Source: an uncultured Thermoplasmata archaeon
GTDB lineage: Archaea; Thermoplasmatota; Thermoplasmata; Lutacidiplasmatales; UBA184
Direction: 5' to 3'
Length of the DNA: 64,000 nt
Assembly (NCBI GenBank): GCA_963749205.1
Contig: CAVVLW010000006.1
Span: forward strand, 449,176 to 513,175
How positions within the stretch are numbered: position 1 is the first letter of the stretch; each line of letters opens with the position of its first letter. Of this stretch, positions 3,366 to 63,921 are shown piece after piece. The notes beneath the pieces are model-generated. The model ran no database searches. It was given only the letters and a program-made list of their open reading frames with translations, and was not told the DNA's origin. The position numbers and the translations under genes are program-made.

Positions 3366-5316
3366 GTGGAACAAAGCCGCCGCCTCGCCGCCGTCATGTT
3401 CACCGACACCGTTGGGTTCACGGCGTCCACACAGGCGAACGAAGGTCGCACCCTCGAGCTGCTACGCCAGCAGGCGGAACTGCTTCGACCGCTGATCGCA
3501 CTCCACCAGGGTCGAGAAATCAAGTCGACGGGGGACGGCTTCCTCGTGGAATTCGACAGCGCGCTTAAGGCCGTTCAATGCGCGGTGAACATCCAGCGCC
3601 GGATAAACGACCGGAACTCCGAAGGGGGTCAGACACCCATTCGAATTCGAATCGGAGTCCATCTGGGGGACGTGGTCCAAAACGGGGGCGACATCCTCGG
3701 AGATGCCGTGAACCTTGCGGCCCGAATCGAACCTCTTGCCGAGCCCGGTGGAGTCTGCGTTTCCAGCGCCGTCTATGACCAGGTCCGGACAAAGGTCGCC
3801 GACAAGTTCGAGAAGCTTCAGCCGAAGGCGTTGAAGGGGATCGAAGTCCCGATGGATGTCTATCGGGTGCTGTTTCCCTGGATGAACAACGACAGTGGAC
3901 CGGCGGCTGATGAGTCGCTTTCCGCCGACAAGAGCCGTCTCGCAGTTCTCCCCTTCGCCAACATCAGCCCTGACCCGTCGGACGAATATTTCGCCGATGG
4001 GCTTACCGAGGAGCTCATCGCGAACCTCTCGGTCGTGCCGGGTTTGAAGGTGATTGCTCGTACCTCGGTCATCGGCTACAAAAAGACAGAGAAGTCCGTT
4101 ACTACGATCGGGAAGGAGCTAGGGGTTGGGACGATCGTGGAAGGGAGTGTCCGCAGGTCGGCAAATCGAATCCGCGTAACGGTTCAGGTCATCGACGTGG
4201 CTACCCAGGAACACCTTTGGACGGCGAAGTACGACGATGACCTCGACGACATCTTCGCCGTGCAAGGCGACATCGCGACGAAGGTTGCCACTGCCCTCCC
4301 GGGAGGGTTGAAGAGGGAGAAGCCTCCGATTCCCGAGCTCGCGAAACCCAGGGAAACGGAGGCCTACCTTCTGTATCTCCAGGGGCAAGCTCTGATGTGG
4401 AAGACAGACGAGGATTCGCTGCGTCGTTCCCTGGAGTTTTTCAAGAAGGCGCTTCAGACCGACCCTACGTTCGCTCGAGCACATGCGGGCATGGCGCGCG
4501 CATACGCCGGGCTCGGATCGGAGGATTTCATGTCGTGGCTGGACGCCTGCAATCTCGGTCGGGCGGCGGCCGAGAAGGCGATCGCTATTGACCCAGGCCT
4601 GGCCGAAGCTCACGCCCTGCGGGCCGAGATCGCGTTCATGGCCGATGAGACGGCCGACGTCCTAGACCGAGAAGTACGAAGGGCGCTCGAGTTGAACCCC
4701 AACTTGGCTCAGGCGCATACCATATTGGCGGCTCTAGCGGGCTCCCTCGGCATAGAAGAGGCGTACGCCGTGGAGAACGAGGCAGCGTACCGACTGGACC
4801 CGCTTTCACCCCCAACAATTCGATCCTTGGGAAATGCGGTACTTCTTCGGGGGGCGGTTCGAAGAGGCCCTGGCCCACTGGAAGAAGACGATTGAACGGG
4901 CCCCGATCGATTCCTACCGTGGGTTGGCGGATCTTTACATGCTCAAGGGAGACTTCGAACAGGCGGAGCTGATGGTTAAGGAATTGGAACGCCTCGCTCC
5001 GGCCAGCGACTTGGCTCTCCTCTGCCGGGGCTGGCTTTCGGCGGTGACGGGAGACCGTCCCACCGCGATGAAGATGATCGAGAGGCTTCAGGAAACCTCT
5101 CGCGAGGGGTACGCGCGCCAATCCTCGGTCGGATTCGTCTACTATGCACTTGGCGACCTTGACCGGTTCTTCGAGGTCATGTTTGCTGCAGCGAAAGCGC
5201 ACACGATGCAGGCAGCTCGGATCCGCATGTCCCCCCTGTTCGCGGGGGCGAGGAAGGACTCGAGATTCGTCGAGCTTATGTCGACGTACGGCAGACCCGT
5301 TCAGGCTCCGAAGTAG
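3366..5316 (+). pseudogene. class III adenylate/guanylate cyclase - TolB-like - TPR protein, paralog 1, one frameshift
   Basis: ORFs 3366..4895 and 4834..5316 together align end to end with intact paralog 17185..19137. Cyclase motifs MFTDTVGFT, STGDGFLVEF and GDAVNLAARIE. Removing one G at 4838/4839 (GCGGTAC) gives SLGNAYFFGGRFEEALAHW. Confidence 0.85.
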
Positions 5317-5360
5317 GCCGAACGGTCCCGAATCTCCACCCCTCAGGGGGAGGGCACGGC

Positions 5361-5383
5361 GGGGTGCAAGTGCGATTGCACTC
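5361..5383. repeat. REP-like palindrome
   Basis: GGGGTGCAAGTGCGATTGCACTC; between the convergent cyclase-1 and antitoxin genes. Confidence 0.75.
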
Positions 5384-5402
5384 ACGATTCCGGGCTGGAC
5401 GG

Positions 5403-5739
5403 TCAGTCGAGCTCCAAGACGAGTCGTCGCTCCTTGTCCGGCGCGACCAGCACCTCTTGTCCGCTCCGGAAGCTTCAAGTATTTCGCGAGGGGCGGCGGG
5501 ATTCGGACGACGAGGGAGTTGCCAGACCGAACAACTTTGACTTTAGTAGCCAGTCCCCGCAGTCCGAGCTCCTTGGCCCGTGCCTCTACCCGGTCCATGC
5601 TCCTCCCGCTTAGGAATGACTCGCCACATCGGTCACACACCTCACCGTCGTAAATGCCGAGGTCAACACCCAACATCTCCTCACGATCAGCAGCCGGTCG
5701 AAGAACTCCCTTGCCACAGGCGGGGCACTTCTCTGCCAT
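5403..5739 (-). pseudogene. zinc-ribbon + AbrB/SpoVT-type antitoxin, one frameshift
   Basis: Starts MAEKCPACGKGVL...CDRCGE (two CxxC pairs), then VVRSGNSLVVRIPPPLAKYLKL. Removing one base in CCGG at 5466..5469 gives ...PSGQEVLVAPDKERRLVLELD and a stop at 5403. As assembled it runs on antisense through the cyclase. Confidence 0.55.
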
Positions 5740-5741
5740 TG

Positions 5742-61702: not shown

Positions 61703-61793
61703 CGCAGACTTCTTCCACCCGGCTCCTTCAGAGAAACGGGTGCACCAGCGGACTCTGGCCCACTCAGTTTTTCGGCGATAAATCGGCGAAAGA

Positions 61794-61834
61794 TGTCGGA
61801 GGGGGACACTACTGAATTGTTCATATCCCCGACA
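61794..61834 (+). repeat. 41-nt bulged hairpin repeat, copy 3
   Basis: TGTCGGAGGGGGACACTACTGAATTGTTCATATCCCCGACA. Confidence 0.8.
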
Positions 61835-61978
61835 TGGGGGTCAGCGAGAAAGCGTGATTGCGCGACTACCCGTAGTCTGGAAAGCGCGATTACAAGAGTG
61901 CCCGGTGCGGTTGGGTTTCCGGGGCGTCCGAAGCACCCGGTCAACTAGTCAAACCACTGTCTCTTCCCTAAACCGGGC

Positions 61979-61985
61979 CTTAATC
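61979..61985 (+). promoter_or_regulatory. TATA-like box of cyclase paralog 4
   Basis: CTTAATC centred 27 nt upstream of GTG 62008. Confidence 0.45.
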
Positions 61986-62007
61986 TAACGAACGCCGTTC
62001 TCGGTGC

Positions 62008-63921
62008 GTGGCCGCGACCCGTCGCCTCGCTGCAATCATGTTTACCGATATGGTCGGCTCCACGGCACTGGCTCAGACCAACGAACCGGAGGCTCTCCGC
62101 CTACGAGATGAGCAGGAAGGTCTCGTCCGCCCTCTCTTCGCGGCCCACCAGGGACGCGAGATCAAGTCGATGGGCGACGGGTTCCTCGCCGAGTTCGATA
62201 GCGCTCTGCGGGCCCTCCAGTGCGCGATTGACATTCAGCAGCGCATCCACGAGAGAAACTCGCTGCCAGGCCAATCTCCAATCCACCTTCGCGTCGGGAT
62301 TCACCTCGGAGATGTCGAGGTACGAGGGACCGATATCTTCGGGGACTCTGTCAACGTCGCTTCTCGAATCGAAGCGCTTGCCGAACCCGGGGGAATCTGC
62401 ATCACTGATCCAGTGTTCGGTCAGGTCCGGAACAAGATTCCTAATCGTCTGGAGAAACTGGCGCCCCAAGTGCTAAAGAACGTCCGGTTCCCCATCGAGG
62501 TTTACAAAGTGACCATGCCGTGGGAGCAGAATGCCGGCATCTCCGGAGCGTTGGACAAGCATCGCGTCGCGGTGATGCCTTTGGTAAACATGATCTCCGA
62601 CCCCAGTGAAGCCTACTTCGCGGATGGAATGACCGAGGAGATCATCTCGGCCATCTCCAAGGTCCGCGAACTCGATGTCATCTCGCGGACGTCGGTGACC
62701 CAGTACCGAAACACGACGAAGAAGGTAGCTGAGATCGGCCGTGACCTCAACGTCGGCACGTTGTTAGAAGGCAGTGTCCGCAAGGCCGGGAACCGCGTCC
62801 GGATTGCCGTGCAATTGATTGATGCGAACAGTGACAAGCACATCTGGGCCGAGAACTACGATCGGACTCTCGAGGACGTCTTCTCCATCCAGAGCGAGAT
62901 AGCCCAGAGCGTCGCCTCCATGCTGAAGGTCGCACTGCTGGAGGACGACCGGAAGAGGCTCGAGCGGGCACCGACCAAGGACCCAGAGGCTCACTCGCTG
63001 TATCTTAAGGGGAAGGCGGCTCCGTCGTATCAGATTGCGTCCGAGTTCTTCCAGAAGGCAATTGATACGGACCCCGAGTACGCCCTGGCGTACACTGCCC
63101 TTGCGGACGCGATCCTCCAGATGGGATTCCAGGAAACCACTCCGCCGAAGGAGTCCTCACAGAAGGGAGAGGCGCTCGTCGTGCGAGCGCTGGCACTGGA
63201 CCCGTCGCTTGCAGAGGCTCACGCTGTGTTGGCGGTAGCTCTATTCTCACGGGGGGAGTACCAGGGTGTCGACCGGGAGCTCGACCTGGCGCTCGAACTG
63301 GACCCCAACCATACCACCGCCCTCGGCCACAAATCGAATTGGGAGCGGTTCAAGAGACATTTCGACGAATCCGAGCGTCTCGCGAGGAGAAGGCTGGAAC
63401 TCGATCCGCTCTCCTTGAACATGATCCAGGATGTGGCTGGCCAGCTGCTCCGCCTTCGCCATCCGGAGGAAGCCATCGCACTCCTCACGAAGGTCCTCAA
63501 GATCGACGCGGGCGCATTTTGGAACCGGTCCGACCTCGGTTTGGCGTACGTCCAGTTGGGGAGGTTCGAGGAGGGCATCGCCTTCCTCCGGGAAGCCATT
63601 GGCAAGGAGAATACCTTCAGCCTGGAGTGCGCCACGACCTACCTGGGGTACGCCCTCAGCAAGGTCGGGAAGATCGACGAGCTGAGAGAGCTGCTTTCCG
63701 AGGGGCTCGAATGGCACAGCAAGAACCATCGAGGTGCCCTCCCGATCGCGGTGATGTACGCGGACTTGGGGGAGAACGACCGCGCGTTGGAGTGGCTCGG
63801 GAAATCCTTCGAAGAACGTCCCTACATGCTTCCGGCCGCCTTCAGCGATTTCTACCTCGAGCAGCTTTGGTCGGATCCCCGGTTCGAGGCTCTCCGGAGG
63901 CGTTTGGGCTGGTTTGATTGA
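62008..63921 (+). CDS. class III adenylate/guanylate cyclase - TolB-like - TPR protein, paralog 4
   Basis: 637-aa intact ORF; MFTDMVGST, SMGDGFLAEF, GDSVNVASRIE, VAVMPLVNMISDPSEAYFADGMTEEII, then TPR-like repeats. Confidence 0.9.
   Translation: MAATRRLAAIMFTDMVGSTALAQTNEPEALRLRDEQEGLVRPLFAAHQGREIKSMGDGFLAEFDSALRALQCAIDIQQRIHERNSLPGQSPIHLRVGIHLGDVEVRGTDIFGDSVNVASRIEALAEPGGICITDPVFGQVRNKIPNRLEKLAPQVLKNVRFPIEVYKVTMPWEQNAGISGALDKHRVAVMPLVNMISDPSEAYFADGMTEEIISAISKVRELDVISRTSVTQYRNTTKKVAEIGRDLNVGTLLEGSVRKAGNRVRIAVQLIDANSDKHIWAENYDRTLEDVFSIQSEIAQSVASMLKVALLEDDRKRLERAPTKDPEAHSLYLKGKAAPSYQIASEFFQKAIDTDPEYALAYTALADAILQMGFQETTPPKESSQKGEALVVRALALDPSLAEAHAVLAVALFSRGEYQGVDRELDLALELDPNHTTALGHKSNWERFKRHFDESERLARRRLELDPLSLNMIQDVAGQLLRLRHPEEAIALLTKVLKIDAGAFWNRSDLGLAYVQLGRFEEGIAFLREAIGKENTFSLECATTYLGYALSKVGKIDELRELLSEGLEWHSKNHRGALPIAVMYADLGENDRALEWLGKSFEERPYMLPAAFSDFYLEQLWSDPRFEALRRRLGWFD

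Follow-up and report, generated by a model that had tools for sequence, protein, structure and literature searches.

Four paralogous genes for probable class III adenylate cyclases with TolB-like and TPR modules in a Thermoplasmata archaeon

What is the role of four long paralogous genes that each begin with a nucleotidyl cyclase domain, and do they belong with the toxin-antitoxin (TA) genes beside them? The genes, here termed P1 to P4, lie in a 64,000-nucleotide stretch (the window) of contig CAVVLW010000006.1 (assembly GCA_963749205.1, positions 449,176 to 513,175) from an uncultured soil or peat archaeon of the lineage UBA184. This lineage falls within the order named Lutacidiplasmatales (TMEG group) in a paper whose main text does not mention cyclases (PMC9287336). 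cAMP has been measured in archaea, and no archaeal cAMP-making, -degrading or -binding protein has been characterised (PMC10249747); the four paralogs are therefore of moderate interest. From their architecture, residues and folds, from their distribution, and from the gene linkage seen in relatives, we conclude that they are probably soluble, cytoplasmic, homodimeric class III adenylate cyclases, which belong to one ancient paralogous family and are regulated through C-terminal tetratricopeptide repeats (TPRs). The genes and their TATA-like boxes are as follows.

3366..5316, plus strand: P1, cyclase/TolB-N-like/TPR gene with a 1-nt insertion near 4838-4839
3366-4895 and 4834-5316, plus strand: P1 reading frames, a 509-aa open reading frame (ORF) and the ORF in whose frame the C-terminal rest lies
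3338..3343, plus strand: TATA-like CTTAAG, 28 nt 5′ of the P1 GTG, read from the sequence
17185..19137, plus strand: P2, 650 aa, intact
17157-17162: TATA-like CTTATC of P2
48220..50184, plus strand: P3, 654 aa from GTG 48220
48190-48195: TATA-like CTTAAT of P3
62008..63921, plus strand: P4, 637 aa
61979-61984: TATA-like CTTAAT of P4

A tblastn search with the four proteins as queries revealed exactly four family places in the window (3363-5313, 17185-19134, 48220-50181, and 62008-63918). This result and the ORFs confirmed four paralogs, the first of them frameshifted, as the original prediction had claimed. DNA alignment with P2 as reference showed one surplus base in P1 near 4838/4839; removal of this base gave a stop-free protein of 649 aa. 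The P3 ORF as mechanically called starts at 48142, directly 3′ of the stop codon of a glyoxalase gene; we placed the P3 start at GTG 48220 on the basis of alignment with the other paralogs and of the TATA-like box. The boxes of all four paralogs are located 28-30 nt 5′ of the start codon, which suggests that they are archaeal promoters of leaderless or near-leaderless mRNAs. A 379-aa minus-strand ORF (4636-5775) that overlaps the 3′ end of P1 is probably a high-G+C artefact; only its first ~100 residues, a Zn-ribbon, MqsA-like antitoxin that partners DUF4258, seem to be genuine. Scans of the window for tRNAs and Rfam families gave no matches.

Each protein consists of three parts, whose limits are given here for P2.

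17197..17694, plus strand: cyclase homology domain, aa 5-170 (Pfam PF00211, residue alignment, Foldseek)
17746..18132, plus strand: TolB-N-like α/β domain, aa 188-316 (AlphaFold2 domain model, Foldseek)
18169..19110, plus strand: TPR superhelix, aa 329-642, 17 helices in about 8 hairpins

Pfam Guanylate_cyc (PF00211) matched the N-terminal part of all four proteins with 47.8-69.8 bits (cut-off 21.9). The motifs FTD, GDG, GDxVNxAxR, and LAVLPFxNISPDPSDEYxADGLTEELI were present and aligned in the paralogs. The three-part architecture and the motifs quoted for it were thus borne out by Pfam, fold search, and alignment. In P2 numbering, the metal-binding residues are D14 and D57, the substrate-specifying residues K53 and D109, and the transition-state residues N116 and R120; all six are invariant across the four paralogs. 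Together with K157 they were kept in 94-99 of 99 diverged family sequences (96-99 for D14, D57, N116, and R120; 95-96 for the pair K53/D109). The catalytic residues, whose possible degeneration had been raised as an objection, are therefore intact.

The closest solved sequences to the P2 cyclase domain were Silicibacter pomeroyi 3mr7 (E 2e-30, 36% identity) and the mycobacterial adenylate cyclases Ma1120 and Rv1900c (LipJ), and the P2 model shared the cyclase fold with these three (target-normalised TM 0.87-0.93, Foldseek). All three are like the window proteins in their metal-binding, Lys/Asp, and Asn/Arg residues. None of them, in contrast to the window proteins, carries a TolB-like/TPR module; the partner domain of LipJ is an α/β hydrolase, and the Ma1120 construct has no partner. 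The NCBIfam LipJ cyclase model scored 79-85 bits on the window proteins. TIGR04510, a putative peptide-modification-system cyclase, scored 54-77 bits against a curated cut-off of 400 and was rejected as an assignment. Inspection of the substrate-specifying residues, which had been recommended, showed that K53 and D109 form the adenine-specifying Lys/Asp pair and correspond in the alignment to the Lys and Asp residues of Ma1120, a validated adenylate cyclase. PDB entry titles list Ma1120 in complex with ATP, and a K-D-A to E-G-Y triple mutant crystallised with GTP. Judged by these residues, the predicted substrate of the window proteins is ATP and not a pyrimidine nucleotide.

The full AlphaFold2 model of P2 (mean pLDDT 81) consists of the cyclase domain (5-170), a disordered linker (aa 174-186), the α/β domain (188-316), a second linker, and 17 helices (329-642). 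A full-length fold search of P2 was swamped by cyclase and TPR matches and was uninformative on the middle domain. When this domain was modelled alone (pLDDT 84), Foldseek matched it to PelC (1e-7), GNA1162, the TolB N-domain, FlgT, and LpoB. The TolB entries 4pwz, 2hqs, and 1crz had E values of about 1e-6 and TM of 0.55-0.60, and the CadC periplasmic domain (3ly8, 3lya) matched more weakly (1.5e-4). The designation TolB-N-like is thus right at the fold level. Pfam TolB_N gave no match to the window proteins at E <= 0.01, and a PDB sequence search with the middle-domain profile gave only insignificant CcmE matches (E 0.04). The Pfam TolB_N and FlgO profiles did match homologous modules directly, with TolB_N (PF04052) found in 21 of 38 sampled proteins from a module-profile search. 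Because homologous modules match TolB_N and the window domain itself does not, we regard the latter as a divergent TolB_N relative.

With the middle-domain profile we retrieved 100,736 representatives of clusters formed at 50% identity; for 26,835 of these, E was <= 1e-30. Nearly all of the 38 sampled relatives had TPRs, and only 7 had a cyclase domain; TolB-like plus TPR is therefore a portable unit, with the cyclase as one output domain among others. Multi-copy proteins made up most of the top 150 in the module search, and this set carries little information on single-copy architectures. Some proteins of 1,700-2,800 aa (P0121-P0128) contained between 3 and 7 TolB-N-like plus TPR modules in tandem; these could be genuine giant proteins, or gene calls in which tandem paralogs have been fused.

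TPR families were found in the C-terminal half of all four proteins (Pfam TPR_19, TPR_2, TPR_17, and TPR_11 above cut-offs), and NCBIfam TPR_END_plus matched P3 and P4. In the P2 model this part is all-helical with pLDDT mostly >85, and a conserved DPRF..LL motif closes the superhelix. No hydrophobic, membrane, or signal segment was detected in the paralogs (Kyte-Doolittle 19-residue maximum <1.5).

P1 and P2 were 73% identical overall (cyclase 79%, middle 81%, TPR 67%). All remaining pairs were 39-41% identical (cyclase 50-58%, middle 45-55%, TPR 25-29%). The TPR end is thus the most divergent part between paralogs, in agreement with the original prediction. P1 and P2 also share the 16-nt sequence CCTCCGACGTTCGTGG across the GTG start. 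This shared 16-mer, to which attention had been drawn, is real and unremarkable, because the two genes are close paralogs whose cyclase domains are 79% identical.

Two known designs resemble this layout in part. In the CadC periplasmic sensor domain and the HilA central region, as in the window proteins, a TolB-N-like α/β subdomain is followed by a helical TPR-like subdomain; NCBIfam PRK10153 and PRK12370 (CadC, HilA) matched the middle domain and first TPRs (E 1e-7 to 1e-11) far below their cut-offs. The output domain of CadC and HilA is DNA-binding, whereas that of the window proteins is a cyclase, and the CadC module is periplasmic, whereas the present one is cytoplasmic. This weak likeness is a lead and not evidence of membership. 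STAND-type cyclases such as M. tuberculosis Rv0386 (cyclase, AAA/NB-ARC, TPR) also have an N-terminal cyclase domain and C-terminal TPRs; however, they carry an NTPase at the position of the TolB-N-like domain. A 979-aa STAND-type cyclase (cyclase, AAA_16, TPR/MalT-like) is encoded at 2362-5301 (minus strand) of a Bathyarchaeota locus that contains a family member (L058), where it adjoins a gene for a cyclic nucleotide (cNMP)-binding protein and a third cyclase-domain gene.

These features suggest how the proteins might work. Two N-terminal cyclase domains would pair head-to-tail, as in bacterial class III enzymes of the same type, and the pair would form two symmetric ATP sites that make cAMP. 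Each cyclase domain is tethered by the disordered linker to the conserved TolB-N-like domain and the fast-diverging TPR superhelix. The TPR end of each paralog may bind a different partner protein or ligand, and the TolB-like domain would transmit this input by altering the pairing of the cyclase domains. The cell would in this way possess an array of cAMP generators, each responding to its own input. Sensor proteins emitting a cyclic nucleotide signal had been proposed for this locus; that proposal fits, and is reinforced by the cNMP-binding and Apyc1/RNase Z-like neighbours of related cyclases (see below). Some points speak against our interpretation. The frameshifted P1 may be dead. The inter-domain arrangement in the P2 model is uncertain (pTM 0.51). 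In the literature on Thermoplasmata, COG5616, and rhizobial TPR cyclases, we found no biochemically characterised protein of the cyclase/TolB-like/TPR architecture.

Are the four copies a recent local expansion? The orthologs indicate otherwise. Intact orthologs of the repaired P1 were 85-92% identical to it (P0045, L002, L008, L006, L060, and L005), and P2 orthologs were 83-88% identical to P2 (P0001/L001, L072, and L004). P1 and P2 are therefore closer to their orthologs elsewhere than to each other. The nearest relatives in the sampled loci were L082 (62%) for P3 and L061 (65%) and L040 (60%) for P4. In a neighbour-joining tree, the four copies fell into four separate clades, each with other Thermoplasmata, and sequences from Nitrososphaerales and Bathyarchaeia were interleaved; the tree has no support values and supports the orthology groups, not the fine branching order. 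For every paralog, some ortholog in another genome is closer than the nearest paralog in the window, which points to old duplications and lateral transfer and not to a recent local burst.

The best protein matches were 70-88% identical and were annotated as [quoted passage not shown], which agrees with the archaeal host inferred earlier from the sequence. More than 7,000 clusters passed E 0.001 among the matches listed in the protein search. An exact-match search for P2, with either V or M in first position, gave no record in the collection searched. A scan of GTDB species genomes (one genome per species), using patterns derived from the window's own paralogs and therefore biased toward close relatives, yielded at least 567 relatives. 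Among the top 80, 78 were from archaeal metagenome-assembled genomes (MAGs) of soils and peat (Thermoplasmata including UBA184, Nitrososphaerales/Thaumarchaeota, Bathyarchaeia, and two unclassified archaeal MAGs) and two were bacterial (one Binatia, one Bipolaricaulota). Many MAGs contributed several family loci, and in at least 18 of ~80 related loci another family member lay no more than 10 kb away. Across the related loci, G+C content ranged from 0.45 to 0.72 and tracked the named lineage, which argues against simple mis-binning.

The literature counts very few class III enzymes among the predicted archaeal adenylate cyclases (PMC8646023) and mentions them in passing for Nitrososphaeraceae genomes (PMC13577086). 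The statement that such cyclases are sporadic in Archaea thus agrees with what has been published; however, the present family is abundant, and present in several copies, in Thermoplasmata, Nitrososphaerales, and Bathyarchaeia from soil and peat. Nor is the domain combination unusual. On rhizobial plasmids 683 records matched, of which 223 covered >=80% of P2 (30-37% identity); a single record contained as many as 15 places. One example, WP_011427821.1 of Rhizobium etli CFN42 p42c, is a single 624-aa coding sequence collinear with P2 over residues 5-640 (32% identity). The rhizobial proteins share with the window proteins the domain order, catalytic residues, AVLPFxNxSxDP...DGxTE motif, C-terminal PRF..L motif, and multi-copy state; they differ in their bacterial hosts (Alphaproteobacteria) and in identity, which is only 30-37%. 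Presumably some of the many Sinorhizobium meliloti cya genes have the same layout. The architecture is thus already established and routinely auto-annotated, and the window adds further members to it. More broadly, many intact class III cyclases occur in uncultured soil and peat archaea of three phyla, and this wider pattern is a lead of moderate interest that can be tested directly.

What might receive the signal? A search of all locus ORFs with E. coli CRP revealed small cNMP-binding proteins encoded directly beside family cyclases in four loci (L005, L006, L064, and L058), and Pfam confirmed them (E about 1e-22). The family of 144-aa cNMP-binding proteins comprises at least 380 clusters, of which the named ones are from Thermoplasmata; the protein is a bare domain with an intact FGEMAL...RTA phosphate-binding cassette. 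In related Thermoplasmata contigs (L085/L086, L087, and L088), a P1-type cyclase gene and a gene for a 246-aa metallo-β-lactamase (MBL) protein lie on one strand, and a cNMP-binding gene followed by a P2-type cyclase gene lies on the opposite strand. The P1-type cyclases of this cluster were 87-90% identical to P1, and the P2-type cyclases 77-81% identical to P2. Some of these contigs were picked because they matched cyclase contigs in length, and the sample is biased in this respect. The positions in relatives are as follows.

L085 1-4022, L087 6-3653, L088 1010-5201: compact cluster on related Thermoplasmata contigs
L085 424-1164 and 1556-1990: genes for the 246-aa MBL protein and the 144-aa cNMP-binding protein
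L091 6001-8286, L092 6001-8103: cNMP-binding and AMP-binding genes on two unrelated long contigs

Pfam labels the MBL protein Lactamase_B and Anti-Pycsar_Apyc1, and its size seems to fit Apyc1 better than RNase Z. Where the genes are linked, the 144-aa protein would be the likely receptor and the Apyc1/RNase Z-like MBL protein a candidate cNMP phosphodiesterase. The P1-type and P2-type cyclases, cNMP-binding protein, and MBL protein suggest a cAMP writer/reader/eraser module in the relatives. We put forward as a tentative proposal, less likely to hold than to fail, that uncultured archaea of soil and peat (Lutacidiplasmatales/UBA184-like Thermoplasmata, non-marine Nitrososphaerales, and Bathyarchaeia) generate their cAMP mainly with this family, that the family has been exchanged between phyla and with soil bacteria, and that in some Thermoplasmata it forms such a module (two cyclases, the 144-aa cNMP-binding protein, and an Apyc1-like phosphodiesterase). 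If true, this would provide the first concrete candidates for enzymes making, sensing, and degrading cAMP in Archaea. The link in some genomes of these cyclases to a cNMP-binding protein and a phosphodiesterase candidate is also practical, since all are small enough to express.

Several observations weaken the proposal. The MBL protein matched RNase Z structures (5e-17) better than Apyc1 (3e-9). A search of the window for the MBL and cNMP-binding genes or their remnants gave only noise, and both genes were absent beside the closest P1 and P2 orthologs (L001 and L002). Two cNMP-binding paralogs chosen regardless of cyclases sit upstream of AMP-binding (acyl-CoA synthetase) genes (L091 and L092). 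In L092, a GNAT gene and a family cyclase lie within 6 kb of the cNMP-binding gene. Mycobacteria control acyl-CoA synthetases through cAMP-dependent acetylation, and by analogy the L091 and L092 layout is reminiscent of such control. A third cNMP-binding paralog lies between glyoxalase genes.

Could active cyclases of this family make a product other than cAMP, either cGMP or a cyclic pyrimidine nucleotide? In favour, PKG-type cGMP-binding domains are the best-scoring matches of the linked cNMP-binding protein, whose cassette reads R-T-A. R-T also occurs in the cassette of cAMP-binding HCN channels and so does not decide between cGMP and cAMP. Class III enzymes can show side activities (PMC8646023). 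However, K53/D109 is the canonical adenine-specifying pair and aligns with that of Ma1120, a validated adenylate cyclase, and we consider a product other than cAMP unlikely.

Another explanation starts from the surroundings of the genes, of which the following were annotated.

5742-5948, minus strand: DUF4258 gene, 3′ of P1, with an MqsA-like Zn-ribbon gene; the module spans 5416-5948 (minus strand)
14086-15466 and 25825-27206: IS4-like (DDE_Tnp_1) element, direct copies, 98-100% identical
15693-15968 and 16268-16597, minus strand: ParE/RelE genes upstream of P2
19328-19783 and 19856-20119, plus strand: MNT and HepT/HEPN pair downstream of P2
21342-22665 and 39898-41221: IS110-family element A, inverted pair, 100% identical, 1324 nt
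31799-32701, minus strand: Fic/DOC-domain protein, strong PADLOC matches to PDC-S04 and SoFic (E 1e-25 to 1e-28; candidate defence families)
33585-34905 and 41995-43315: IS110-family element B, inverted pair, 100% identical, 1321 nt
37275-37877 and 41246-41674, minus strand: two PIN proteins
46632-47594, plus strand: tyrosine recombinase upstream of P3
47752-48141, plus strand: glyoxalase gene between recombinase and P3
61212-61448, plus strand: DUF7557 gene upstream of P4
61442-61699, plus strand: RelE-like ORF upstream of P4, PDB matches Rv2866 and RelE3

The neighbours originally assigned to the paralogs were largely correct: the DUF4258, RelE, and MNT-HEPN calls and the RelE gene before P4 held up. 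The integrase said to precede P3 does lie upstream of it, but the glyoxalase gene intervenes. The RelE-like ORF before P4 has no in-frame ATG, GTG, or TTG start and was hence missed by the ORF lister. The first IS4-like copy looks truncated (231-aa ORF vs 449 aa).

The copies might mainly be cargo of mobile DNA, carried by an integrase island or an integron-like array, so that their clustering reflects hitch-hiking. Consistent with this, the window contains four IS110 copies, the IS4-like copies, an IS630-like gene, and the tyrosine recombinase, and the identical IS110 pairs suggest recent transposition and potential inversion of the intervening 17-kb and 7-kb segments. A 72% identical recombinase is encoded directly upstream of the P2 ortholog in L001 (8896-9837), related recombinases occur near family cyclases in L004 (13701-14542), L011, and L013, and the tree interleaves different phyla. 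Against it, the window recombinase is a divergent XerA-type match (74 bits; XerA_Arch cut-off 220), and each paralog has orthologs with partly conserved synteny. An integron cassette array was rejected: no attC-like sites were found, the two candidate attC motif pairs being unstructured and fewer than in shuffled sequence. Mobile cargo as the main explanation is improbable in our view; it concerns spread rather than function and would be compatible with signalling adenylate cyclases.

Do the cyclases act in defence or stress, together with neighbouring TA modules or in a Pycsar-like manner, such that their cyclic nucleotide would set off toxins or abortive infection? Such a link had been suggested from the neighbourhood, and a TA gene is indeed the immediate neighbour of three of the four paralogs. 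The window is crowded with insertion sequences (IS) and TA genes (at least 12 of ~78 ORFs are of TA type), and TA adjacency is therefore expected; by a rough estimate, chance alone would give three of four such adjacencies in about 5-10% of cases. From copy to copy, the TA genes differ in type, side, and orientation. In a census of the adjoining ORF on either side of each family cyclase (52 related loci, 126 proteins, Pfam), no TA family occurred more than once among the 126 immediate neighbours, and no Pfam family more than three times. Homologs of the window's TA pairs do lie within a few kb of family cyclases in six loci (L002, L004, L016, L022, L040, and L060), but this recurrence of TA and recombinase genes, seen in a few close relatives, is consistent with shared synteny and with TA-rich islands.

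A Pycsar-like function fared no better. The likeness consists of a class III-type cyclase fold and, in relatives, of linked cNMP-binding and Apyc1-like MBL genes, the latter with the Anti-Pycsar_Apyc1 label. Membership was rejected: the PADLOC PycC matches were weak (14-36 bits), well under those to generic class III models (48-85 bits, LipJ 79-85), and none of the genes next to the copies codes for a fusion of a cNMP-binding domain with a TIR, membrane, or nuclease effector. In the relatives, too, the linked cNMP-binding protein is a bare domain. Unlike Pycsar cyclases, the window proteins have TPR sensor domains, form a multi-paralog family, and carry specificity residues that predict ATP and not pyrimidines. 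Many old paralogs with orthologs per genome are the pattern of a signal-transduction family. A defence or stress role is thus very unlikely, and this analysis corrects the tempting view that the cyclases and the adjoining TA genes form a unit. We conclude that the TA, IS, and integrase genes near the copies probably reflect a plastic genome region and not functional coupling.

It is least probable of all, to the point of being hardly credible, that the proteins are pseudo-enzymes or scaffolds in which the TolB-like/TPR module does the work (e.g., in protein assembly) and the cyclase is vestigial: the module mostly occurs without a cyclase domain and P1 is frameshifted, but catalytic residues kept in about 95% of 99 diverged members are unexpected for a vestigial domain.

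One minor feature of the surroundings concerns P3, which is flanked by glyoxalase-family genes on both sides (47752-48141, plus strand; 50243-50554, minus strand). Glyoxalase genes also flank the cNMP-binding gene in L089/L090 (L089 1307-2656), which may be a coincidence.

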